This document shows positions 4,667 to 61,109 of a DNA stretch of 64,000 bases, in pieces. This stretch comes from a virus: the IMG/VR virus record IMGVR_UViG_3300023106_000001, positions 65,485 through 129,484 of that record; one strand, 5' to 3'. Below the pieces are notes generated by a model. It saw only the letters and a list, made by a program, of their open reading frames with translations. It ran no database searches and was not told the DNA's origin. Each line of letters starts with the position of its first letter. Positions within the stretch are counted from its first letter, which is position 1. The position numbers and the translations under genes are program-made.

Positions 4667-4698
4667 TTTGTTAAAACTATTATTTATGTGTAAATTTG
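4667..4698 (+). promoter_or_regulatory. Bacteroidota sigma-ABfr-type promoter (-33 TTTG / -7 TAAATTTG)
   Basis: TTTG 4667-4670, 20-nt spacer, TAAATTTG 4691-4698, upstream of the ATG at 4721. Confidence 0.75.
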
Positions 4699-8258: not shown

Positions 8259-9289
8259 TGGCAGTAATATACAGACATTTAAAACCTTGCGGAGAAGTAT
8301 TCTATATAGGTATAGGTAAAAAGCATAAGAGGGCATATGCTAAAAGTGACAGGAGTAATTTTTGGAAAGATACAGTTAAAAAATACGGATATGAAGTACA
8401 AATTTTAAAATCTGACTTGACATGGGATGATGCTGTAGAGTTAGAGATTATTTTAATAGCCTATTACGGAAGGAGAAATTTAGGGAAAGGTACTCTTGTA
8501 AATTTAACTGATGGAGGCGAAGGCACTAATGGAGCTAAATTAGAGACAAGAATTAAAATAATAGACACTAGAACAGGAAAATTAGTAACTAAAGAAGAAG
8601 CCTCTAAAGAAATAGGTATAAGCCCATCTCATCTATATAGCCTATTAAAAGGAAAGTTAACAAATTATACTTATTACGTCTATGAAAAAAATTACAAAGG
8701 AGAAGTTCATTATCCTGAAGATAAATTACATGAACATCTAAAAGTAATAAATATAAAAACAAAGGAGATTTTTAACAGTATGATTAGCGGGGCAAGATCT
8801 ATAGGAATGAGTACAGCCGCCTTTCAGAGAAGAATGAAGGGAGAAGTTAAGAATAATACTCCATTCGTACTATTAAATAACTATGTTGAAGGGAAAATAA
8901 AATACAGTCATTATGTAAATTACATATGCACTAAGACTTTAAAAACTTTTGCTACAGTGAAAGAGTGTGGTGATTATTTAGGTATTAATTCTAAAACTTT
9001 AAGCGTTTGTTTAAATCCAGACAGAAGAGAAAATAATTCAACAACTATAATGTTATATAAGGATTACTTGACATATGGAATAATCCCACCACATGTAATA
9101 ACTAAAGAAAATATTAAAGTTATAAATAAGGACACAAAAGAAATTTTTGAAAGTATAAGATCCGCAGCTATTTCAGTCAACATGGATAGAGGCACCTTAA
9201 GAAGAAAACTAAAAGGAAAATCTAAAAACGACACACCCTTCATGCTTTTATCAGAATACGAAGAAATATACGGAAAAGTAAATAACTAA
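8258..9289 (+). CDS. GIY-YIG-family homing endonuclease-like protein with NUMOD1-like repeats
   Basis: VIYRH...EVFYIGIG...RAY...E..LIAYYGR...LVNLTDGGEG, then about four repeats of KVIN..T.EIF.S...AA..IG. Start overlaps the portal stop (TAATG). Confidence 0.8.
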   Translation: MAVIYRHLKPCGEVFYIGIGKKHKRAYAKSDRSNFWKDTVKKYGYEVQILKSDLTWDDAVELEIILIAYYGRRNLGKGTLVNLTDGGEGTNGAKLETRIKIIDTRTGKLVTKEEASKEIGISPSHLYSLLKGKLTNYTYYVYEKNYKGEVHYPEDKLHEHLKVINIKTKEIFNSMISGARSIGMSTAAFQRRMKGEVKNNTPFVLLNNYVEGKIKYSHYVNYICTKTLKTFATVKECGDYLGINSKTLSVCLNPDRRENNSTTIMLYKDYLTYGIIPPHVITKENIKVINKDTKEIFESIRSAAISVNMDRGTLRRKLKGKSKNDTPFMLLSEYEEIYGKVNN

Positions 9290-9313
9290 TAATCTCAGTC
9301 TTACTTTTAAAAT

Positions 9314-9356
9314 AAGGGCGTATCTTACTAAAAAATTAAGGAAAATACACCTTTTT
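9314..9356 (+). terminator. probable intrinsic terminator
   Basis: AAGGGCGTAT/ATACACCTT stem with one mismatch, inner CTTA/TAAG stem, followed by a T-run. Confidence 0.45.
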
Positions 9357-9372
9357 CGATAAAATTAAGAAA

Positions 9373-9404
9373 TTTGAATATCAGATAATAATAACATAAA
9401 TTTG
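9373..9404 (+). promoter_or_regulatory. Bacteroidota-type promoter for scaffold/MCP
   Basis: TTTG 9373-9376, 20-nt spacer, TAAATTTG 9397-9404. Confidence 0.75.
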
Positions 9405-9413
9405 CACAATACA

Positions 9414-10535
9414 ATGCCACAAGAAAACCAAACAAGTACTTTAGACACAGCTTTATCCTTTGATGATTTACAAAAAGGATTTTCATTCTCACCACCAGAT
9501 GAGACAACTCCTGAAACTCCCGAATTAACATTTGAACCTTTAGATTTAAGCGGAGAAAAAAAGGACGAAGAAATTGTAGATCCTCCCGCGGGAGAAAAAC
9601 CTGAAGAAAAAGATCCTGAGTTTAAACCTTTAAATTTAGAAACACCTAAAGATAATTTTTACACAAACCTATTAAAAAAGAAACTTGAAAAAGGACTTTG
9701 GGAAGATGTAATTATTAAAGAAGGAGAAACAGAAACAAAACTTTCTGAAATTGAAGACTTAACAGAAGAAGAGTATCTTAAACTTGAAGAGGATCAGTTA
9801 GCTATTAAGAACGAGGACATCAAAGAAAAATATATTTCAATTGACGGAATCGCGGAAGAAAAAAAGCTAATTCTTGAAATTGTTAAAAACGGAGGAAACT
9901 TAGCAGAGTTATTCCAAAATGAGCAACAACTAGAAAAACCGTTTGATGAAAGTAAAGGGTGGGATTTAGAAAATGAAAAACACCAGGAATCAATTGCTTA
10001 TCAACATTATTTAAGTCAAGGAAATACACCAAGCAGAGCAAAACTATTAGTAGAAGAAGACAAGAAAGAGTTTGTTTTAGATAGTGTGGCCAAACAAATT
10101 GTAGATTTTCATCAAAAAGCATATAGCGATAATTTAAATGAAATCAATAAAAAACTAATTGAAGATAAGGCCTCGGAAAAAGAAAATCTAAAAGTTTACA
10201 GATCAGAACTTACTAAAAAATATAAAGAAGATAAAGTACCAGAGCATGATATTAAGAAATTAGTAGATGCCGCCACAAAAGAAGATCAAAACGGAGAATT
10301 TGCTGTAGACACTATCTACGAAACAAAAATGAAAGACCCGATTGAAGCTTCAGAACTAATTTTCTTTTTAACTAATAAAGAACAGTATTTGCAACAAAAA
10401 ATGCTGGAAACAAAAGTTAAAACAAATTTAAGTACAATGCGAACAATTAATAGAGCACCAAAAGATGCTGCACAAAAAGTCGCGCCAAAAGAAGAAACAC
10501 AAGAATCAGGATTTAGATTTAATATACCAACATAA
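9414..10535 (+). CDS. probable capsid scaffolding/assembly protein
   Basis: Acidic, Pro/Glu-rich N-terminus and helical body, immediately before MCP. ATG 9414 is preferred because the track's TTG at 9402 lies inside the -7 promoter box. Confidence 0.65.
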   Translation: MPQENQTSTLDTALSFDDLQKGFSFSPPDETTPETPELTFEPLDLSGEKKDEEIVDPPAGEKPEEKDPEFKPLNLETPKDNFYTNLLKKKLEKGLWEDVIIKEGETETKLSEIEDLTEEEYLKLEEDQLAIKNEDIKEKYISIDGIAEEKKLILEIVKNGGNLAELFQNEQQLEKPFDESKGWDLENEKHQESIAYQHYLSQGNTPSRAKLLVEEDKKEFVLDSVAKQIVDFHQKAYSDNLNEINKKLIEDKASEKENLKVYRSELTKKYKEDKVPEHDIKKLVDAATKEDQNGEFAVDTIYETKMKDPIEASELIFFLTNKEQYLQQKMLETKVKTNLSTMRTINRAPKDAAQKVAPKEETQESGFRFNIPT

Positions 10536-36892: not shown

Positions 36893-37477
36893 ATGATTGA
36901 GATTGATCACAGATTAAAACCTTCTGTATATGGTGTTGGATATAGAGGGATAGGTAAGTATAGTAGTTCTAATAAGTCTTACAAGATATGGCAAAGTATG
37001 TTACAAAGGTGTTATGACCCCAAATACCATAAAACGAAACCTTCTTATATTAAATGTGAAGTACATCAAGAATGGCACAATTTTCAAAACTTCGCAAAAT
37101 GGTTTGAAAAAAGGTATACAGTTGAAAAAATGTTGGGTTGGGCTTTAGATAAAGATATTTTAATAAAAGGTAATAGAATTTACTCTCCCGAAGCATGTTG
37201 TCTAGTTCCACTTGAAATTAATAGTTTATTTATAAAAAGCGGAAAATCAAGAGGAAAATATCCAATAGGTGTTACAAAATCAGGTAAAAAATTTAGAGCC
37301 AGATTTGGTAAAGATAGAGATCATTTAGGAATATTTAATACTCCTGAAGAAGCTTTCCAAGTATACAAGATCGCCAAAGAAATTTATATTAAAGAGATTG
37401 CATATAAATGGCGCAGTAAGATTACAGAAGCATGCTATTCAGCATTAATAAACTACCAAGTAGAAATAACCGATTAA
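36893..37477 (+). CDS. HNH-like (beta-beta-alpha) homing endonuclease-like protein, copy 1
   Basis: W.SMLQRCY...Y..C.V..EWHNFQNFA.W...LDKDIL.KGN.IYSPE.C.LVP.EIN; AP2-like C-terminus. Confidence 0.75.
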   Translation: MIEIDHRLKPSVYGVGYRGIGKYSSSNKSYKIWQSMLQRCYDPKYHKTKPSYIKCEVHQEWHNFQNFAKWFEKRYTVEKMLGWALDKDILIKGNRIYSPEACCLVPLEINSLFIKSGKSRGKYPIGVTKSGKKFRARFGKDRDHLGIFNTPEEAFQVYKIAKEIYIKEIAYKWRSKITEACYSALINYQVEITD

Positions 37478-53716: not shown

Positions 53717-56700
53717 ATGGCTTGTAAAGTTGATAGAAATTCGGAAGGAATAATAACAAAAGTATTAGATCAAAATGGAAATGAAAGTAGACTTTTTATA
53801 AGTGTTGCTTCAAATCCATTTGTAGAAAACACTGAAAAAGCATTAGAACTATACAAAAACATTTATTCGCCGAAAATAGATAAAACAGCAAAAGAAGTTA
53901 CACCCAGAGTTTCTTCTATTTATAATCAAAACCAAGATTTATCTAATATAGGTACGGCTGAACAATATCAAGAATATCTATCTCAGATATTTCCTCAAAG
54001 TCAATTAAAAGATGTAGTTTATCACGGCACAAAAAGAGATTTTGAAGACTTTGATGCCACTCAAATAGGTACAGAAAGTGACAGAAATAAAACTATAGGG
54101 GATTTTGGCCAAGGATTTTATTTTACAGATAATTTTTTTAAAGCTGAAGGGTATTCAATTAATATGGATACAGGTAGAAAAGGAGCTGTTAAAAATGTAA
54201 TTCTAAATATAACCAACCCTTTATATAGAAATTCTAAAACTATCATAGCTCCTAAAACCAGCGAAGAATTAGAAAATGAGGGGTATGATGGCGTAATTGT
54301 ATCTTACACTACCAATAACAATATGGATGAAATTGTTGTTCCTAATAGTAATCAAATTCATGTTTTAGGTTCGGCAAAAGATTTACAACAGTTTCAAGAT
54401 TTTGTAAGTAACCCTTCAATAAATGAAAGTGGTATCCAATTCGTTCATGAAGTAAATGGAAAACAATTCAGTTCTTTAAAATCCGCATTAAAAGAAGCAG
54501 TAGACGGCCAAAAAATAGAATTAGGATTCACTTCAAATAATGAATTCACTTCTGTAATGTCTGTAACCAAAAACGTAGATAAATCTTCGGTTAATGGGTT
54601 TACACAGGCTTCTATTTTGGAAGGAACAATGGCTGAAACCAGAGTGAAGATAGGTAATGAGTATTTGCTTCAGAGTGAGGGTCAAAGCGAAATGAAGAAA
54701 AATGTTTCTTTAGATTTATTGGCAAATTCGGCAATGACAAATTTAGGTTCTTTAGGAATTGAAGTTTCTGGAACAACTGTAAGACTTAATGAGAATTTAG
54801 GTAAAACAGCAGTTTATACTAAAAGTGGAGAAAGACAAATAATTGATGCGCAAGAATTAGACGAACTGTCAATTGATGAACTTAAAGCTCGTTATGAGAA
54901 TTATGAAGAGATTTTCGCGGAAAGAGAATATAAAAGAAATGTACCTTTATATAGAGAAACTTCAGAGGAAGAGCAACCAGAAACTGTAAAAACAGAAGAT
55001 GAAGTTAAACTATCTTTATATAAGCTTCTTAAAAATATGGGTGTAACTGTAACTTCAATTACAAATTACACTGAGAAATTCCAAATTAGAAACTCTGTGC
55101 CTATCCAGGCTGAGGCTTTAGCAGATATCGCACAAAGAGTTATTGCTTTTCAAACAGGAGCGGAAACACTAGAAAACTTAACTGAAGAAACAATTCACTT
55201 TATAGTAGAAGCACTTCCGCAAGAAAGACTTGAAAACATACTTAGAAACATAGATAAATCTGAAGAATATAAAGAATTTGCGCAAACATATAGAGAAGTT
55301 TACAGCAGAGAATACAATGCAGAAGAAACTGAAATGGCTGTTCGTAAAGAAGTCTTAGGAAAAATAGCTTTAAATGCTGTTCAACAATCAGCGCCTGTTT
55401 CTGAAACAACTCAAAATTTCTTCAATAGCGCAATTCAATTTATACAACAGTTTTTTCAAGATATTGCTTCTTATTTCAAGCCACAATATATTTCCGATTT
55501 AAATGGAATTATTACAGATATTCAAGATATTTTAAATACAGGGGATATTAGTGGATTACAATTAGATAACTTAGATAATAATCGAAAAAGATTTTATTCT
55601 TTAGATACATCTACAAACGCTAAGAGAATCGCGGAAGAAACTAAAAAACAAATTGATATTTTAAGTAGGGAAAATGATGATTTATCTAGAAATCAACAAG
55701 GATCTCAATTCAATAAAAATAGACTTTTAGCTGTACAAAAAGAACTTGATGATAAATTAGAAGTACATGCTGTGGCTACGGTGGCCAGAATTGCAGATAA
55801 TAATGTTAATAGACTTTTCGCCGCGATAAAAGATTCACAAGACAAAGGAAAAAATTACGACTTATCACAAGAAGAAGTAATGATCTTTAAAAATCTTATA
55901 GGGGAAACAACACAAACTCTTGGAGTTATCAAAAAACTGATTGAAGATGACACCACTTTAAATAAATTAACTGTTTGGCAAACACTATCTAAAAGCATTG
56001 GAGACTCAATTCAAAATATATCTAACTTAAAAGCACAAAGAGATGTAACTCAACAACAAAGTATTGAGAAGCAAATTAATGCCGTTACGATTGACAGGGG
56101 CTTAAGTGCTAGAGAAAAAGAGGCTATGCTTAGATGGAGTATTTCAGCAGAGAACGACATTAGCTGGATAGGCTCCACTTTTGGGACTCTCAACAACTCA
56201 CCCGATGCCTTAATGTCATTATTTGCAACTGTTAAGACAGGAATGATTTCTGAAGGATCACGCGCAGACCATAATCAGATTAAAAACTGGCAAAAAGTTA
56301 TTTATGATAATGGATTCGACGAAAAAATTATTTCTACATTTGTTAAAGATGGGTATTTCTTGTCAGAAAGAGATATTGCAGGTTATCAAAAACAGTTAGA
56401 TGAAAACTTCTTGCAAGAATATAAAAAAGTATTTACCGATACTAAACTTAAAGATGAAGAAATTCTAAATAAAAGAAGTAAAGGTACATTAGAATGGTCA
56501 GATGAGCAAAAAGACAGTATTTATGAAGCTACAAGAAAGCTAAATGAAAATGAGTCTGAGCGCCGAATGAAAGATGAGTATTATGCTGAATTAGAACAAA
56601 AATTTGTCAATTTAAATATTTCTAAAAATACTCAAAACATTCTTCAAGGCCTAAACGCCGACAAAAGAAGAATAACAGAAAGAGCAAGAGATTCTAACGG

Positions 56701-59700
56701 TAAGATAGATTTAACTTTACTTAGCGGTCAAGGTATACAACAGTTAAACACTTTAAATTTAGAAAGGAAACAACTTAAAAGCTTTATAGATGAGCTTGGA
56801 AATCTAAAAGAAGGTTTAAAATACAGCCAAAACGAAGAAGGAAAAACAATCATTGAATCTATTGGTGACATTGATAAATTACCAGCACCTTCAAGACAAG
56901 CTTTAGACTTAAACAAATTAGATAATTCTTACGATAACACAACACCTGAAGGAAGTTCTCAATTACCACAATCTTTCATAGATTTAATTCTAAGTAAAGA
57001 CGACAGGCAAACTCAAATCCAAGCATTACAATTAAACTCTCAAATAGGCTTTTCAAGCGATTTCTGGGATAGTTTTGGCAATAATAAAGGATTAGTAGAT
57101 AAGCTTGAAGACATAGGTGGAAATGAAGACTTAATAGAAGATATTAAAGCAAATAGTTTCCGACTTAAAAATATTATTAAAGTTTACACTAAATCTTCAA
57201 ATCCTTCAGAAACTGATGTTGAGAACATGCCTGAATTGGCCAGACAAACAGTGAGGGATATTCAAGAGAATTTAGAAGAACTTTACGCCGAAGCAAGAGA
57301 ATTAACAGCAGATATTACTTCTGAAGATATTGAGAATTTAGTAGAGGGAGTTTCGGGAATAAATGAGTCCTGGAATAAAAGACTCTTAGACTTAGGACTT
57401 GATATAATAGATACAGCGGGAGTTGAACTTGAGATTTTAACTAATAAAATCGCGGAAGAAGCAAAAGCAAACATGACTGCAAAAAACCGAAAAACAACTC
57501 AACAAATGCAAGATAGCATAGAGAGTTACATAAACGGTTTTAGAGAAACTCTTCCTAAATCTGTAATGAGAAAATTAGAAGAACAAAATCTGTCTAAAGA
57601 AGATTTACTTGAACCAACAACTAAAAATCAGTTTGTAAGAAGTTTTGCAGAAAGCAGATTACTACCTTATTATAGAAGATACACACCACAAGGATATGTA
57701 GAATTTCAAAATGATTTAAACAGTGATAAACCTGTAAACGAAATCCTAAATAATTTAGAGCAGGGACAATATCAATACGTAGAAGTAAAACCAAATTACA
57801 GTTTTCAAGACGAAGATACTTCTCAAATGAATCCAAACTATATTGTTAATTCGGGAATGGGGAGCCAACAACCTAAATTAAGTAAATATAAAAATACAGA
57901 ATTTGATAGTTTATTTGGTACTGTTACAAGAGATAATGAAGGTAATTATATTTCGGCCACAAAAAATGAAAAACTATTTGAAGTTTACAAAGCTACAATA
58001 AAGCTAAGAAAGGATCAAATTGCACTCATGGATGGAGATTCGAGTTATAATATTTATTTAACTCCGCAAATCAGAAAACAAGGAATTGAACGTTATTTAG
58101 GAGGATTAAAAAGTTTGTCAGGGCAGTCTATAAAAGATGCTTTTGAGAACATAACCACATATACTGAGGATGACCAGATACAGGGGGATAATAGATTAGG
58201 AACCGCAAACAAAAGTATTCCAAAACCTTTTTATGCGAGATTAGAAAATCAAACAGATATCACAGAGGATATTTTCCACGGACTTGCTATGACAAATAAA
58301 GCTGCAAATATCTATGCTTCCAGAGTAAAATACTTTGGAGATGCTATGGCCATCATAGACAAAGCTTCTACAAGAACTAATGCTGATGGGAAAATAGGGA
58401 CAGCTACTAATAGGTATAAAGCATTAGAATCAGCGCTAGATAACGATTTCTTCGGTATAAAACAAGCCGCTACAGCTACAATTGATGTGCCTTTTGTCGG
58501 CAAAATAGATGGTGCGAAGGTCGTGGAAGGACTAGGTAGCTTCCTTAGGTTCAAAGGTTTAGGATCAAGTGTTGTCATACCAGCAACTGCTTTTCTTTCT
58601 GCAAAGAGTAAACAGACAGTCGAAAGAATTGTAGGGCAATATATAAATAATGACTCATTTAAAAGAGGAAGTGCTTTATACCATGATCAGGTTGGCAAGG
58701 CAATGACAGAGATAAACTCCGTCCAAACAAAATCTAAGTTAAACTCTGTTGGTCAATTTTGGGGGGCATTTGAAATGGAAAATAGTTTGTATGGTTCTAA
58801 ATTTAGCGCTTTCCCTAGATTTTTGTCAAAAAGTTCAATGATACTTTACCAAGCTGTAAATTACCCTCTGTATGGTAAAGGAATGCTTACAGTTTTAAAT
58901 GATTTCCGAATTGTAGAGGGACAATTAGTAAAATTCACAGATTTTCAACGTAATCAAAGAACTGCTAATTTAAAAATAACTAATGCCGAAATAAAAGAAA
59001 AATGGTCTAATGAAAATACTGTTATTTATGATTTCCAAGATGTTTCAGATAATGGAGAAGTGAGTTTTAACCGAGAAAAGCTTAAATCTATATTAAGGGA
59101 TTCAAATGGTAATGAATATTCAGATGCAGATCTAGAGGAAGAAATCTCTCGTTTTAGTAATGATATAAGGATTCAAATTAAGAATTTAAATGTAAGAATA
59201 GATTTGCAGTTATCTCATGAAGACAAAGTGGCCGCAAATCGAAACTTTTTACTTAATTTTATAATGATGTTCAAAGGATTTATGGTGGTTCTTGCGGAAG
59301 AAAGATTTAAACCTCAAGGATTTAACACTCAGTCGAGACAATTAGAAAGCGGCTCTTATTCTGGGATATACAGAATGATGAATGATATTGTAAGAGAATG
59401 GAAACAAAATGGAGTGCCGTTTATTCAAGCTTTTAAAAATCAATATAATGGAAATTTCACAGAACAAGAATCAAGAATAAATGAATTAGAACAAATATCT
59501 AATAGAACAGCTGCTGAAAATAAAGAACTTCAGGATTTAAAAGAAGAGGTTGTTCAAGGCATAGAGTTATCGGAACTAAGAAAGTCTAATTTGAAGAGGC
59601 TTTCAGTAGATTTGTTATTTGTTAATACAGTGATGCTAATTTCAATGCTACTTAGAGGACTTGCTGACGATGATCCAAAAAGAGAGAATTGGGCTTTACA

Positions 59701-60025
59701 AATGGCCAACTTACTTACGTATAGACTTGTAGGAGAGCTACATTCTTCAAATACGGGAATAGCTAATCAGTATTGGGGCGTGGTCTCCACTCCATTGCAA
59801 TCTTTTGATCAAATATTATCCTTAAATAAACTACTTGAAGAGAATGCTTGGAAGGAAGGTAAAGTTCTAAGTAGCATAGGTAAAATTGCACCATTTTCTA
59901 ATAGTTTAAATCAATTAATTGACCCAGGAACGGCCTATGAAAATAAAAAATATTATAGTGAAGTAAAAGGAAATGATTTTTTCTCAGTTCCCATGTGGCA
60001 GTTTTTAAATAAAGATGGTAATTAA
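53717..60025 (+). CDS. giant polyvalent ejection protein (2102 aa) with an ADP-ribosyltransferase-like domain and a degenerate zincin-like domain
   Basis: VYHGT...GQGFYFTD...LNITNP...GYDGVI...DEIVV (H-Y-E ART fold, ART-PolyVal-like); LTEETIHF (HExxH-like) around 55184-55198; long helical C-terminus. Confidence 0.7.
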   Translation: MACKVDRNSEGIITKVLDQNGNESRLFISVASNPFVENTEKALELYKNIYSPKIDKTAKEVTPRVSSIYNQNQDLSNIGTAEQYQEYLSQIFPQSQLKDVVYHGTKRDFEDFDATQIGTESDRNKTIGDFGQGFYFTDNFFKAEGYSINMDTGRKGAVKNVILNITNPLYRNSKTIIAPKTSEELENEGYDGVIVSYTTNNNMDEIVVPNSNQIHVLGSAKDLQQFQDFVSNPSINESGIQFVHEVNGKQFSSLKSALKEAVDGQKIELGFTSNNEFTSVMSVTKNVDKSSVNGFTQASILEGTMAETRVKIGNEYLLQSEGQSEMKKNVSLDLLANSAMTNLGSLGIEVSGTTVRLNENLGKTAVYTKSGERQIIDAQELDELSIDELKARYENYEEIFAEREYKRNVPLYRETSEEEQPETVKTEDEVKLSLYKLLKNMGVTVTSITNYTEKFQIRNSVPIQAEALADIAQRVIAFQTGAETLENLTEETIHFIVEALPQERLENILRNIDKSEEYKEFAQTYREVYSREYNAEETEMAVRKEVLGKIALNAVQQSAPVSETTQNFFNSAIQFIQQFFQDIASYFKPQYISDLNGIITDIQDILNTGDISGLQLDNLDNNRKRFYSLDTSTNAKRIAEETKKQIDILSRENDDLSRNQQGSQFNKNRLLAVQKELDDKLEVHAVATVARIADNNVNRLFAAIKDSQDKGKNYDLSQEEVMIFKNLIGETTQTLGVIKKLIEDDTTLNKLTVWQTLSKSIGDSIQNISNLKAQRDVTQQQSIEKQINAVTIDRGLSAREKEAMLRWSISAENDISWIGSTFGTLNNSPDALMSLFATVKTGMISEGSRADHNQIKNWQKVIYDNGFDEKIISTFVKDGYFLSERDIAGYQKQLDENFLQEYKKVFTDTKLKDEEILNKRSKGTLEWSDEQKDSIYEATRKLNENESERRMKDEYYAELEQKFVNLNISKNTQNILQGLNADKRRITERARDSNGKIDLTLLSGQGIQQLNTLNLERKQLKSFIDELGNLKEGLKYSQNEEGKTIIESIGDIDKLPAPSRQALDLNKLDNSYDNTTPEGSSQLPQSFIDLILSKDDRQTQIQALQLNSQIGFSSDFWDSFGNNKGLVDKLEDIGGNEDLIEDIKANSFRLKNIIKVYTKSSNPSETDVENMPELARQTVRDIQENLEELYAEARELTADITSEDIENLVEGVSGINESWNKRLLDLGLDIIDTAGVELEILTNKIAEEAKANMTAKNRKTTQQMQDSIESYINGFRETLPKSVMRKLEEQNLSKEDLLEPTTKNQFVRSFAESRLLPYYRRYTPQGYVEFQNDLNSDKPVNEILNNLEQGQYQYVEVKPNYSFQDEDTSQMNPNYIVNSGMGSQQPKLSKYKNTEFDSLFGTVTRDNEGNYISATKNEKLFEVYKATIKLRKDQIALMDGDSSYNIYLTPQIRKQGIERYLGGLKSLSGQSIKDAFENITTYTEDDQIQGDNRLGTANKSIPKPFYARLENQTDITEDIFHGLAMTNKAANIYASRVKYFGDAMAIIDKASTRTNADGKIGTATNRYKALESALDNDFFGIKQAATATIDVPFVGKIDGAKVVEGLGSFLRFKGLGSSVVIPATAFLSAKSKQTVERIVGQYINNDSFKRGSALYHDQVGKAMTEINSVQTKSKLNSVGQFWGAFEMENSLYGSKFSAFPRFLSKSSMILYQAVNYPLYGKGMLTVLNDFRIVEGQLVKFTDFQRNQRTANLKITNAEIKEKWSNENTVIYDFQDVSDNGEVSFNREKLKSILRDSNGNEYSDADLEEEISRFSNDIRIQIKNLNVRIDLQLSHEDKVAANRNFLLNFIMMFKGFMVVLAEERFKPQGFNTQSRQLESGSYSGIYRMMNDIVREWKQNGVPFIQAFKNQYNGNFTEQESRINELEQISNRTAAENKELQDLKEEVVQGIELSELRKSNLKRLSVDLLFVNTVMLISMLLRGLADDDPKRENWALQMANLLTYRLVGELHSSNTGIANQYWGVVSTPLQSFDQILSLNKLLEENAWKEGKVLSSIGKIAPFSNSLNQLIDPGTAYENKKYYSEVKGNDFFSVPMWQFLNKDGN

Positions 60026-60057
60026 TTTGGTAGATTGAAAAATAAATTGTAAGTTTG
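60026..60057 (+). promoter_or_regulatory. Bacteroidota-type promoter
   Basis: TTTG 60026-60029, 20-nt spacer, TAAGTTTG 60050-60057. Confidence 0.75.
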
Positions 60058-60060
60058 CAT

Positions 60061-60167
60061 AGTTGAATAAGATTTCCGAGATCAAATTCAATATTTTAAA
60101 AGATATAAACTATTCCCCGTTATTAATCTGAGTTCTCGGAAAACTCTTTTTAATAGTGGGGATTTTT
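60061..60167 (+). ncRNA. structured 5' leader: two hairpins with complementary 7-nt loops; the second is terminator-like
   Basis: Loop 1 TTCCGAG (60074-60080), loop 2 CTCGGAA (60135-60141); outer stem 60114-60125 with 60151-60162, followed by T5. Confidence 0.65.
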
Positions 60168-60176
60168 ATTTAAGAT

Positions 60177-60908
60177 ATGGGCAGACCAATAAGAAATAGG
60201 GCAGGAGAAAGATATTTAACTAATGAAGGTTATTGGGTATTAATTATAGAATCTTTCAGTGCAACAAATTGTACAATACAATTTAACGATGTTAATAAAA
60301 CAATTCTAAAAAATACGAGAGTTTGTGAAATAAAAAATGGGAGTATTAAAAATCCCTATCATCCGTCTGTATGCGGTATTGGATACTTTGGAATTGGTAA
60401 ATATAATTCACAAAAAGGTAAAGTATATCAAGCATGGGCTGACATGATAAAAAGGTGTTATTCTAAAAATAGACAAAATACTCAACCTACTTATACTATA
60501 TGTTCTGTTTGTAAAGAATGGTTAAATTTTCAAAATTACGCGGAGTGGTATGAAACGAATAGAGTCGATAATTACCAAGTTGACAAAGATATTTTAACCA
60601 AAGGTAATAAAATTTACAGCCCAGAAAATTGTTGCTTTGTTCCACAAGAGATTAACGCTTTACTTACCAAATCTAATAGTGCTAGAGGAAAATATCCGAT
60701 AGGTGTTCATAAATCAGGTAAAAAGTATATTGCAAGACTTCAAGAGAAAGATAAAAAAGAACGTTTTGACACTCCAGAAGAAGCTTTTGAATGTTATAAA
60801 TTTCACAAGGAAAATCATATAAAGAAAGTGGCTAACAAATACAGAGGTAAAATAACAGAAGGTTGTTACTGGGCATTATATAATTATCAAGTAGAAATAA
60901 CTGATTAA
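60177..60908 (+). CDS. HNH-like homing endonuclease-like protein, copy 3
   Basis: Same family as 36893 and 38470 (DMIKRCY...EWLNFQNYAEW...VDKDIL.KGNKIYSPE.C.FVP.EIN...NYQVEITD). Confidence 0.75.
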   Translation: MGRPIRNRAGERYLTNEGYWVLIIESFSATNCTIQFNDVNKTILKNTRVCEIKNGSIKNPYHPSVCGIGYFGIGKYNSQKGKVYQAWADMIKRCYSKNRQNTQPTYTICSVCKEWLNFQNYAEWYETNRVDNYQVDKDILTKGNKIYSPENCCFVPQEINALLTKSNSARGKYPIGVHKSGKKYIARLQEKDKKERFDTPEEAFECYKFHKENHIKKVANKYRGKITEGCYWALYNYQVEITD

Positions 60909-60911
60909 AAA

Positions 60912-60943
60912 CTTGCACAATAAAAATAAATAAACTAAATTTA
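60912..60943 (+). promoter_or_regulatory. probable promoter for the small-gene cluster
   Basis: CTTG 60912-60915, 20-nt spacer, TAAATTTA 60936-60943 (one mismatch to consensus). Confidence 0.45.
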
Positions 60944-60965
60944 CAAAAAATTAAAACAGATAAAC

Positions 60966-61109
60966 ATGAAACAGCAAGAATTAGAAGAAATGATTAAAGA
61001 TGAAGTTAGAAAAATAGTTATTTCTCACAAAGAAGGTAAAATGTCTGATGAAGAATATTTCCAAAAAATGACAGCTTATAGTGAGATTTGTGGAGCTTTA
61101 AATTCTTAG
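60966..61109 (+). CDS. small hypothetical protein (47 aa)
   Basis: MKQQELEEMIKDEVRKIVISHKEGKMSDEEYFQKMTAYSEICGALNS*, read by hand; fills the gap between genes. Confidence 0.6.
   Translation: MKQQELEEMIKDEVRKIVISHKEGKMSDEEYFQKMTAYSEICGALNS

Follow-up and report, generated by a model that had tools for sequence, protein, structure and literature searches.

In the genome of an uncultured phage, a 115-nt leader separates a promoter from the gene for an HNH homing endonuclease, and the loops of its two hairpins are exact reverse complements of each other. Is this complementarity selected or accidental, and does the leader serve the nuclease gene behind it? The stretch in question, hereafter the window, comprises 64,000 nt (bases 65,485–129,484) of the IMG/VR virus record IMGVR_UViG_3300023106_000001, which is 140,992 bp long, has direct terminal repeats and has a G+C content of approximately 31%. 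Comparison with related loci identified the leader as a real structured RNA of the plus strand, in which the pairing between the two loops is selected. The module occurs in a leaf-litter clade of uncultured Bacteroidota phages that are distant kin of the Cellulophaga phages phi17:2 and phi4:1 (genus Lightbulbvirus), the nearest isolates, with 24% protein identity in the gene upstream of the leader. The whole stretch was present in one leaf-litter metagenome sequencing run, which may represent the source sample of the virus.

Structure of the leader RNA

The minimum-free-energy fold of the leader consisted of exactly two hairpins, H1 and H2 (−26.6 kcal/mol, z −2.2), separated by a linker that was unpaired in all folds. 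The features of the unit, all on the plus strand, are listed below.

60026–60057: promoter P1 of the Bacteroidota sigma-A type, predicted from the sequence (−33 element TTTG at 60026–60029, 20-nt spacer, −7 box TAAGTTTG at 60050–60057)
60062–60092: hairpin H1, from folds (outer stem 60062–60068/60086–60092, inner stem 60071–60073/60081–60083, loop UUCCGAG at 60074–60080)
60093–60113: A/U-rich single-stranded linker of 21 nt, with the semi-conserved motif UUUAAAAGA at 60095–60103
60114–60162: hairpin H2, from folds, two-tiered and of the intrinsic-terminator type (lower stem 60114–60126/60150–60162, U-rich 3 × 3 internal loop)
60130–60134/60142–60146: upper stem of H2, from folds, with the apical 7-nt loop CUCGGAA at 60135–60141, which has YUNR at its start
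60074–60141: loop–loop (kissing) helix of 7 bp between 60074–60080 and 60135–60141, from covariation in 13 units
60163–60176: T-run at 60163–60167, then ATTT, with a 9-nt spacer to the nuclease start codon, from the sequence

A preliminary description, made from the letters of the stretch, had given the hairpin coordinates exactly: TTGAAT/ATTCAA plus GAT/ATC around TTCCGAG in H1, and TCCCCGTTATTA/TAATAGTGGGGA plus GAGTT/AACTC around CTCGGAA in H2, followed by T5. Folding and comparison also bore out its view of a structured RNA with a promoter directly 5′ and a terminator-type hairpin at the 3′ side. H2 has the properties of an intrinsic terminator, its predicted function, with 18 pairs, a calculated stability near −18.5 kcal/mol and a T5 run that starts one base beyond the stem; a simple consensus terminator scan missed it because of the internal loop. 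The two loops lie 54 nt apart on the same strand and in the same predicted transcript, and the calculated energy of the kissing duplex was −6.7 to −9.0 kcal/mol. The extension of the match to 9 bp (60073–60081/60134–60142) was confined to the window phage.

The preliminary description had further considered the GC-rich match unlikely by chance. For bare complementarity within one genome this did not hold: terminator-type loops of 7 nt had a complementary 7-mer no more than 110 nt away in 25 instances in the genome, compared with 17–35 in shuffled versions. The word TTCCGAG or its complement was found three times in the window (two expected), the one extra copy, a conceivable trans target at 10172 on the minus strand, being at chance level. 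A stricter scan, requiring the word to lie inside a 5′ hairpin loop and a hairpin of ≥9 pairs to abut a T-run, returned two units, each preceded by a promoter box, in the 141-kb genome and 0, 0, 0, 0, and two units in five shuffled genomes, one of the latter two with a box. The claim was upheld by the comparison of homologous units described next.

Covariation of the two loops among related phages

Orthologous regions were gathered via the C-terminus of the giant protein encoded upstream of the leader and via the promoter pattern. A degenerate 26-nt pattern derived from the P1 box matched 60 metagenome stretches, mostly ordinary Bacteroidales promoters, and yielded four new units; several of the 60 matches were followed by transfer RNA-like sequence, as judged by eye. 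An exact-pattern scan of viral contigs for type-1 words (see below) with their flanks gave no match. In total, 14 loci including the window carried the unit, each with the promoter, H1 directly at the predicted transcript start, and approximately 17–31 nt of A/U linker. In the 13 loci not cut by a contig end, a two-tiered H2 came next, its internal loop U-rich and its apical loop exactly 7 nt long, and then a T-run; the sequence of the remaining locus, L081, ends just after the H2 loop. The linker motif UUUAAAAGA, or a variant one or two bases off, was recognized by eye in the window, L060, L003, L083, L004, and L081.

The stem sequences differed widely among the 14 units, whereas the whole H2 loop was complementary to a 7-mer of the H1 loop in every one. 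Six pairs of words were found at the window locus, given below as H1 word/H2 loop.

Type 1, UUCCGAG/CUCGGAA: window, L060, L081
Type 2, GUUCGAG/CUCGAAC: L003, L035, L005, L006, L070, L086
Type 3, GUACGAA/UUCGUAC: L004, L064
Type 4, GGUAGAA/UUCUACC: L078
Type 5, AUUCGAG/CUCGAAU: L082
Type 6, CUACGAA/UUCGUAG: L083

A seventh word was carried by a second unit of the window genome (locus 2), which also has an apical loop of 7 nt, and an eighth by a unit in the unrelated contig L142.

Covariation was computed on a MAFFT alignment of 13 units at the window locus. The complementarity of the loops was kept throughout: 91 of 91 cells were Watson–Crick pairs, none was G-U, and five of the seven pairs had changed on both sides. 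Neither the observed percentage of paired cells nor the covariation score was reached in any of 500 shuffles, and sliding the partner by one to three columns reduced the paired fraction to 22–47%. RNAalifold, unprompted, returned the loop–loop helix as the consensus structure. The pairs of H1 were kept in 84% of cells, with two rows out of register, and five of nine had changed on both sides. In H2, the two pairs closing the apical loop had changed on both sides; the lower stem was out of register in the alignment and was judged from single-sequence folds.

All 12 complete units folded from the predicted transcript start into H1, linker, and H2. In every unit the plus-strand RNA was more stable than the minus-strand RNA, by 3–14 kcal/mol. 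G-U pairs made up 38 of the 306 stem pairs (12%) compared with none of the kissing pairs, and a G-U pair in a stem would be a mismatch on the other strand. The covariation and the strand-specific stability therefore show that the feature is a plus-strand RNA and that its loop–loop pairing is under strong selection.

A peculiarity was seen in the type-2 units (L003:5236–5262 and others), where transcripts entering from upstream of P1, and only these, could form an alternative G+C-rich hairpin, GCCTCG/CGAGGC. This hairpin, not seen in the other types, would mask four bases of the kissing word, so that transcripts of type-2 units started at P1 and those reading through from upstream might fold differently.

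Promoter P1 and the predicted transcript start

The Bacteroidota sigma-A consensus consists of a −7 box, TAnnTTTG, and a −33 element, TTTG, located about 19–21 nt upstream (PMC9723704, PMC7366714). P1, with TTTG, 20 nt, and TAAGTTTG, is a near-perfect match in sequence, and its activity is predicted. What the preliminary description had called a "consensus promoter" is a poor sigma-70 match (nine of 12 positions) and belongs to the Bacteroidota sigma-A type. The sigma-A box of Flavobacterium psychrophilum spans −12 to −5 (PMC9723704); the predicted +1 of the leader is therefore G60062, the first base of H1. In all units of the relatives, the predicted +1 was at most 1 nt from the base of H1.

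Seven other plus-strand boxes of the sigma-A type in the window lie 0–21 nt 5′ of the start of an open reading frame (ORF), and P1 alone is followed by a 115-nt leader. The last bases of the −7 boxes of these seven are at 4698, 9404, 12688, 14046, 27957, 36874, and 38452. At two of them the predicted start coincides with the ATG, which would make the messenger RNAs (mRNAs) leaderless.

Association of the leader with nuclease genes

The leader lies between the following two genes.

53717–60025, plus strand: virion polyvalent protein gene, 2102 amino acids, with an ART-PolyVal domain (ORF list; Pfam PF18760 at 2.9e-11)
60177–60908, plus strand: HNH homing endonuclease gene, 243 amino acids, with an AP2-like C-terminal part (phrog_953 at 2.7e-59)

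The product of the upstream gene is 24% identical to virion structural proteins of phi17:2 and phi4:1. This gene closes a block of giant-protein genes, and its stop codon (60023–60025) abuts the −33 element of P1. H2 is the first terminator 3′ of it; none was present between the stop codon and P1. DNA matches to the downstream gene fell under genes annotated as HNH endonuclease or AP2 domain protein, and its product was 36–56% identical to those of the other copies.

The link between leader and nuclease gene that the preliminary description had drawn was supported. A nuclease gene followed 12 of the 13 units for which this could be determined, at a distance of 9–22 nt, compared with none of seven relatives without the unit, a difference with a probability of approximately 1 in 10,000 in a hand-computed Fisher test that ignores relatedness. 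The genes behind the leaders of the window locus encoded HNH nucleases in eight cases, GIY-YIG nucleases in L004, L083, and, interrupted, L086, and an EndoVII-like zinc-ribbon nuclease in L006; L005 had none. The nuclease ORFs started 14–22 nt after the first T of the T-run. In the seven relatives without the unit (L079, L080, L084, L085, L087, L088, and phi17:2), a simple terminator was followed by a promoter, as at the orthologous site of phi17:2 with its plain terminator. The terminators of relatives lacking H1 had loops of 3–6 nt or a loop widened to 12 nt. The scanner found no unit in the first 50 kb of phi17:2.

In L086 (6074–6200), the GIY-YIG gene behind the type-2 leader is stopped after about 40 codons and its NUMOD1 part forms a separate ORF; it looks like a decaying homing endonuclease gene.

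The stricter scan located the second unit of the window genome outside the window, also in front of an HNH gene.

G000:C1, approximately 33,985 to 33,877 (L090:2381–2489), minus strand: locus-2 unit with promoter box, H1 loop GCUUCGAC, H2 7-nt loop GUCGAAG, and T-run
L090:1604–2368, minus strand: locus-2 HNH gene, 12 nt after the T-run, its product 47% identical to that of the copy at 60177

In four relatives the two flanking genes of locus 2 are retained, while leader and nuclease gene are both missing. Four complete genomes were scanned throughout, and units with a promoter box turned up at these two loci only. The same design occurred in L142, an unrelated and GC-richer phage contig, with the word GUGACGG/CCGUCAC 25 nt 5′ of an HNH gene. 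The full architecture, a promoter followed by a 5′ hairpin kissing the terminator loop, was thereby found in the 14 units of the window locus, at locus 2, and in L142.

We had initially read the unit as a small-RNA gene bound to its locus, because the downstream genes vary, an HNH paralogue in the window has a plain promoter, and the genes further downstream have a separate promoter, P2. The 12 of 13 against none of seven, the second unit with its HNH gene, and the joint absence of leader and nuclease at locus 2 moved this reading to a module of nuclease cassettes.

Exchange of leaders and a separate downstream promoter

The genes behind the nuclease gene are preceded by a promoter-like box of their own.

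60913–60965, plus strand: promoter-like box P2, from sequence comparison (TTG at 60913–60915, 20-nt spacer, TAAATTTA at 60936–60943; first ORF at 60966)

A near-identical P2 followed the nuclease gene in L003, L035, L006, L070, L004, L064, and L060 and lay directly after the terminator in the nuclease-free L005. Given this conserved box, control of the downstream small genes by the leader, as the preliminary description had proposed, was not borne out.

The words did not follow the phylogeny of the flanking genes. L004 and L006 are nearly identical in the flank and carry types 3 and 2, respectively. By its flank the window belongs with type-2 phages (90% identity, e.g., with L003) yet carries type 1, a word shared by distant phages (window, L060, and L081). 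The HNH genes of the window locus were only 36–50% identical to the window copy. Leader and nuclease gene have therefore been exchanged by recombination between the conserved P1 and P2.

In L087 (8300–8375), which has no nuclease gene, P1 and H1 have been deleted between two copies of TTAATTAATTT. Its H2 keeps the lower stem as a plain terminator, but with an apical loop grown from 7 nt to 12 nt. We count this in support of a dependence of the H2 loop on H1, which the widening in this one sequence would suggest.

Proposed mechanism and alternative explanations

From this anatomy we infer the ends of the transcript, its termination, the pairing in cis, and the direction of the effect. The reading to which we incline, with some reserve, is that of a portable promoter with a leaky terminator that is locked by the kissing loops, throttles the nuclease gene and yields a short RNA. 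Host RNA polymerase would start at P1, with +1 near G60062. The first 31 nt would fold into H1, the 21-nt A/U linker and then the H2 terminator would be transcribed, and all seven bases of the H2 apical loop would pair with the H1 loop of the same molecule to give a compact closed fold. With the U-rich internal loop of H2 as a hinge, H1, the kiss, and the upper part of H2 could stack over approximately 20–25 bp, a span that a linker of 17–31 nt could close. Most transcripts from P1, as well as those of the upstream giant-protein operon, would end at the T-run. Those from P1 would form an RNA of about 105 nt, the small RNA that the preliminary description had named as an alternative and that is the expected main product of the unit. 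The fraction reading through would be the source of the nuclease mRNA and at locus 2 would also serve the next gene. By tying the tip of the terminator to the 5′ hairpin, the kiss would set, and most likely raise, the efficiency of termination and the stability of the RNA, and the private 7-nt word of each unit would keep the units in one cell from pairing with each other.

Several points weigh against this reading. Covariation cannot separate pairing in cis from pairing in trans, and the kissing loops of the phage RNAs ROOL and GOLLD, which were also first found by covariation, proved to be intermolecular (Kretsch et al. 2025, PMC12286853). Where the transcript starts and ends, and how efficiently it is terminated, are predictions. 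Without the kiss, H2 is already stable (−18.5 kcal/mol over the 62 nt preceding the T-run), so it is hard to see why a lock should be needed. Only 3 nt separate the nuclease stop codon of locus 2 from the next gene, in front of which no promoter box was seen; H2 is therefore no tight terminator there, and read-through must be appreciable. The leader was found with one of 80 HNH homologues from other viral contigs, the other 79 having no scanner match; this count is a lower bound because the loop scanners were of limited sensitivity and their first versions missed known units. A third HNH copy in the window (36893–37477) has a plain promoter and a 14-nt leader, which makes the long leader dispensable for this nuclease family. 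Since the leader also precedes GIY-YIG and EndoVII-like genes, is lacking from this copy and was not found by the scanner at 79 of 80 homologues, it is not specific to the HNH family. L005, finally, has an intact unit without a nuclease gene. A tiny remnant of four codons (ATG-AAA-AAA-TAA) lies there at the place where the nuclease genes of L060 and L070 start, so the gene has probably been lost recently. The third HNH copy is 56% identical to that at 60177 and adjoins a split tail gene.

That the pairing is intermolecular appears to us somewhat unlikely. The short RNA would then form head-to-tail dimers or rings, or would pair with nascent leaders of the same word or with the 3′ ends of late operon mRNAs, as a type-specific feedback or "address" comparable to plasmid copy-control RNAs or to the P4 CI and P1/P7 c4 immunity RNAs. 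The H2 loop starts with YUNR (CUCG or UUCG) in five of the six words of the window locus, and YUNR is reportedly the U-turn motif of fast-pairing antisense RNA loops. The absence of G-U among the 91 kissing cells, compared with 12% in the stems, would fit such a function, and ROOL and GOLLD with their covarying kissing loops provide a precedent (PMC12286853). The distribution of the words points the same way, since they differ between near-identical phages (L004 and L006; window and L003), are shared by distant ones, and are not the same in the two units of one genome; however, orthogonal words are equally expected of a cis element that avoids cross-talk. Moreover, both loops lie on one molecule, 54 nt apart, so that local concentration favours the cis kiss once the second loop emerges; closure in cis by a linker of 17–31 nt is sterically plausible, and no other copy of the word occurred in a comparable context in the genome. 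Less probable still is a conditional gate, in which a phage or host factor would read the kissing complex or its absence (a Rop-like reader of shape, or an antiterminator as at lambda PR′-tR′) and open the terminator at a set time of infection. The promoter-proximal position of the terminator, the dependence of the downstream genes of locus 2 on read-through, and a conservation of the kiss so perfect that it suggests more than fine tuning would all suit a gate, and the conserved single-stranded linker motif UUUAAAAGA could be a binding site. Against this, a candidate factor was not found, H1 lacks an aptamer-like core and is a plain hairpin with no match to a riboswitch family, and the freely varying words mean that such a factor would have to read shape rather than sequence.

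We give little credence to an independent phage small-RNA gene with targets elsewhere in host or phage, behind which nucleases land for the sake of a nearby promoter. Stable bacterial small RNAs are usually built from a 5′ hairpin and a terminator, three unrelated nuclease families share the same leader, and L005 has the unit by itself, its kiss intact and its upper H2 stem altered in a compensatory way. However, the remnant in L005 probably reflects recent nuclease loss, leader and nuclease were gained or lost together at locus 2, and besides the linker motif there is no conserved seed, as the words themselves are not conserved. A feature of the DNA is very improbable, be it a 7-bp inverted repeat for protein binding, a recombination site, or an endonuclease cleavage site. 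The words are indeed inverted repeats in DNA, and gene replacement and recombination are concentrated in this region, but eight unrelated words would need eight co-evolving proteins, the many G-U pairs make the stems strand-specific, the limits of the repeats match those of a 7-nt RNA hairpin loop exactly in all units, and they lie inside the leader instead of flanking the mobile gene.

Four further candidates were considered and set aside. An antiterminator helix in place of the kiss is less likely, since the complementarity stops at the 7-nt loop in most words; in folds, the long-range helix formed only in transcripts ending before the 3′ arm of H2. A coding function of the leader was not supported, as a 22-codon frame starting with TTG in the window was not kept in the relatives (by eye). 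A replication origin was not supported either, the cumulative GC skew rising steadily through the whole window. As for a ribozyme or group I intron, there was no Rfam match, and the upstream gene ends at a conserved stop codon.

Relation to known regulatory RNAs

The preliminary description could not assign the leader to an Rfam family, and the search confirmed this. The best hit in 59800–60400 was CopA, with 19.4 bits against a gathering threshold of 60 (E 0.77), and eight related loci (62.6 kb) gave no Rfam 15 match at gathering. No description of such an element was found in the literature searched.

The nearest parallel in gene organization is phage T4, where transcription of the free-standing HNH gene mobE is limited by an intrinsic terminator that only mobE-carrying phages possess (Wilson and Edgell 2009, PMC2790892). 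As there, a free-standing HNH gene occupies an intergenic slot of a phage together with a Rho-independent terminator, and a nearby promoter offsets polarity on the downstream genes (PMC2790892). The co-occurrence of terminator and nuclease gene is also shared, given the 12 of 13 against none of seven and the joint presence or absence at locus 2. In contrast, mobE lacks a promoter, depends on upstream transcription, and carries its terminator within the ORF, whereas the present unit has its own promoter and a terminator ending 9 nt before the start codon. The mobE terminator also lacks a 5′ hairpin and any loop–loop pairing.

In the cobalamin riboswitch, the L5–L13 kissing loop is said to work by an upstream loop that pairs with and stabilizes the hairpin of the expression platform, and to covary. 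That kiss depends on a ligand bound by a large aptamer, whereas the present H1 is bare and without Rfam match, and H2 is a strong terminator alone. Cores of the cobalamin, guanidine-II, and guanidine-IV type were absent: the words vary at five of seven positions, whereas guanidine-II has ACGR loops, and H1 is a plain hairpin.

In ColE1 plasmids, RNA I and RNA II kiss through 7-nt loops by full Watson–Crick pairing, in a complex whose shape is recognized by Rop; a YUNR loop start is usual, and the words are the specificity determinants among related replicons. Fully Watson–Crick-paired 7-nt loops with differing words are what the present unit shares with this system. In ColE1, pT181, and pIP501, however, the two RNAs are separate molecules made by antisense transcription of one segment, whereas one strand and one transcript carry both of the present loops, whose complementarity therefore has to be selected. 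The P4 CI RNA (seqB with seqA/seqC) and the P1/P7 c4 RNA are similar in that segments of a leader are mutually complementary, their pairing controls premature termination or expression, and changes between phages are compensated. They are cut from the leader and act in trans on linear targets in the immunity regions of temperate elements; the Rfam C4 model did not match here, and the present leader has no known processing signal. ROOL and GOLLD are likewise phage non-coding RNAs with covarying kissing loops essential to their architecture, but those are ornate RNAs of approximately 580 to >800 nt that form cages and lie near transfer RNA genes, whereas the present RNA has about 105 nt, two hairpins, and a terminator and lies before nuclease genes. 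At lambda PR′, a strong promoter is followed by the terminator tR′, the short 6S RNA is the default product, and Q opens read-through. The default of a short RNA and the need of the downstream genes for read-through would be similar, and the lambda 6S RNA has no loop–loop pairing; a counterpart of Q, a pause site, or a binding element was not found in the window unit. Finally, the leader differs from the phi29 pRNA, which has intermolecular loops and belongs to phi29-like genomes with protein-primed replication: there was no Rfam pRNA match, and the genome is one of 141 kb with direct terminal repeats, akin to phi17:2. Overall the unit would act as a promoter-proximal attenuator, closest to the mobE terminator in setting, to the cobalamin kiss in geometry, to the ColE1-type loops in chemistry, and to the P4 and P1 leader RNAs in compensated diversity, and it was found to have the full defining features of none of these families.

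The leader adds a well-supported structured RNA to Bacteroidota phages, in which the control of transcription is almost unknown. It would tie a tertiary contact of RNA to the control of homing endonuclease genes, a kind of regulation known mainly from T4, and may explain how selfish nuclease cassettes are insulated transcriptionally from the operons they invade. The small modular design with its natural orthogonal words could potentially supply orthogonal attenuators for Bacteroidota, which are short of genetic parts. It is also possible, as a tentative idea, that such units form a widespread and uncatalogued class of self-addressed transcription gates in Bacteroidota phages, with the 7-nt word and its complement as an orthogonal "address" and with the short RNA or a shape-reading factor opening or closing leaders of the same word. 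Phages and mobile nuclease cassettes would then run several independent RNA-coded switches per cell, each private in mixed infections.

Variation around the locus

The genes behind P2 varied between phages: a 47-amino-acid ORF in the window, an RNA ligase in L005, and others elsewhere. P2 has the appearance of an anchor at which a variable gene cluster recombines. In L080, a relative without the leader, a gene of the IS605 OrfB/TnpB type (8655–9643) lies two genes 3′ of the giant protein gene. In phi17:2 (L076:3629–3665), a 12-nt direct repeat, ATTACCTTATAA, occurs twice between the stop codon of the structural gene and the terminator.

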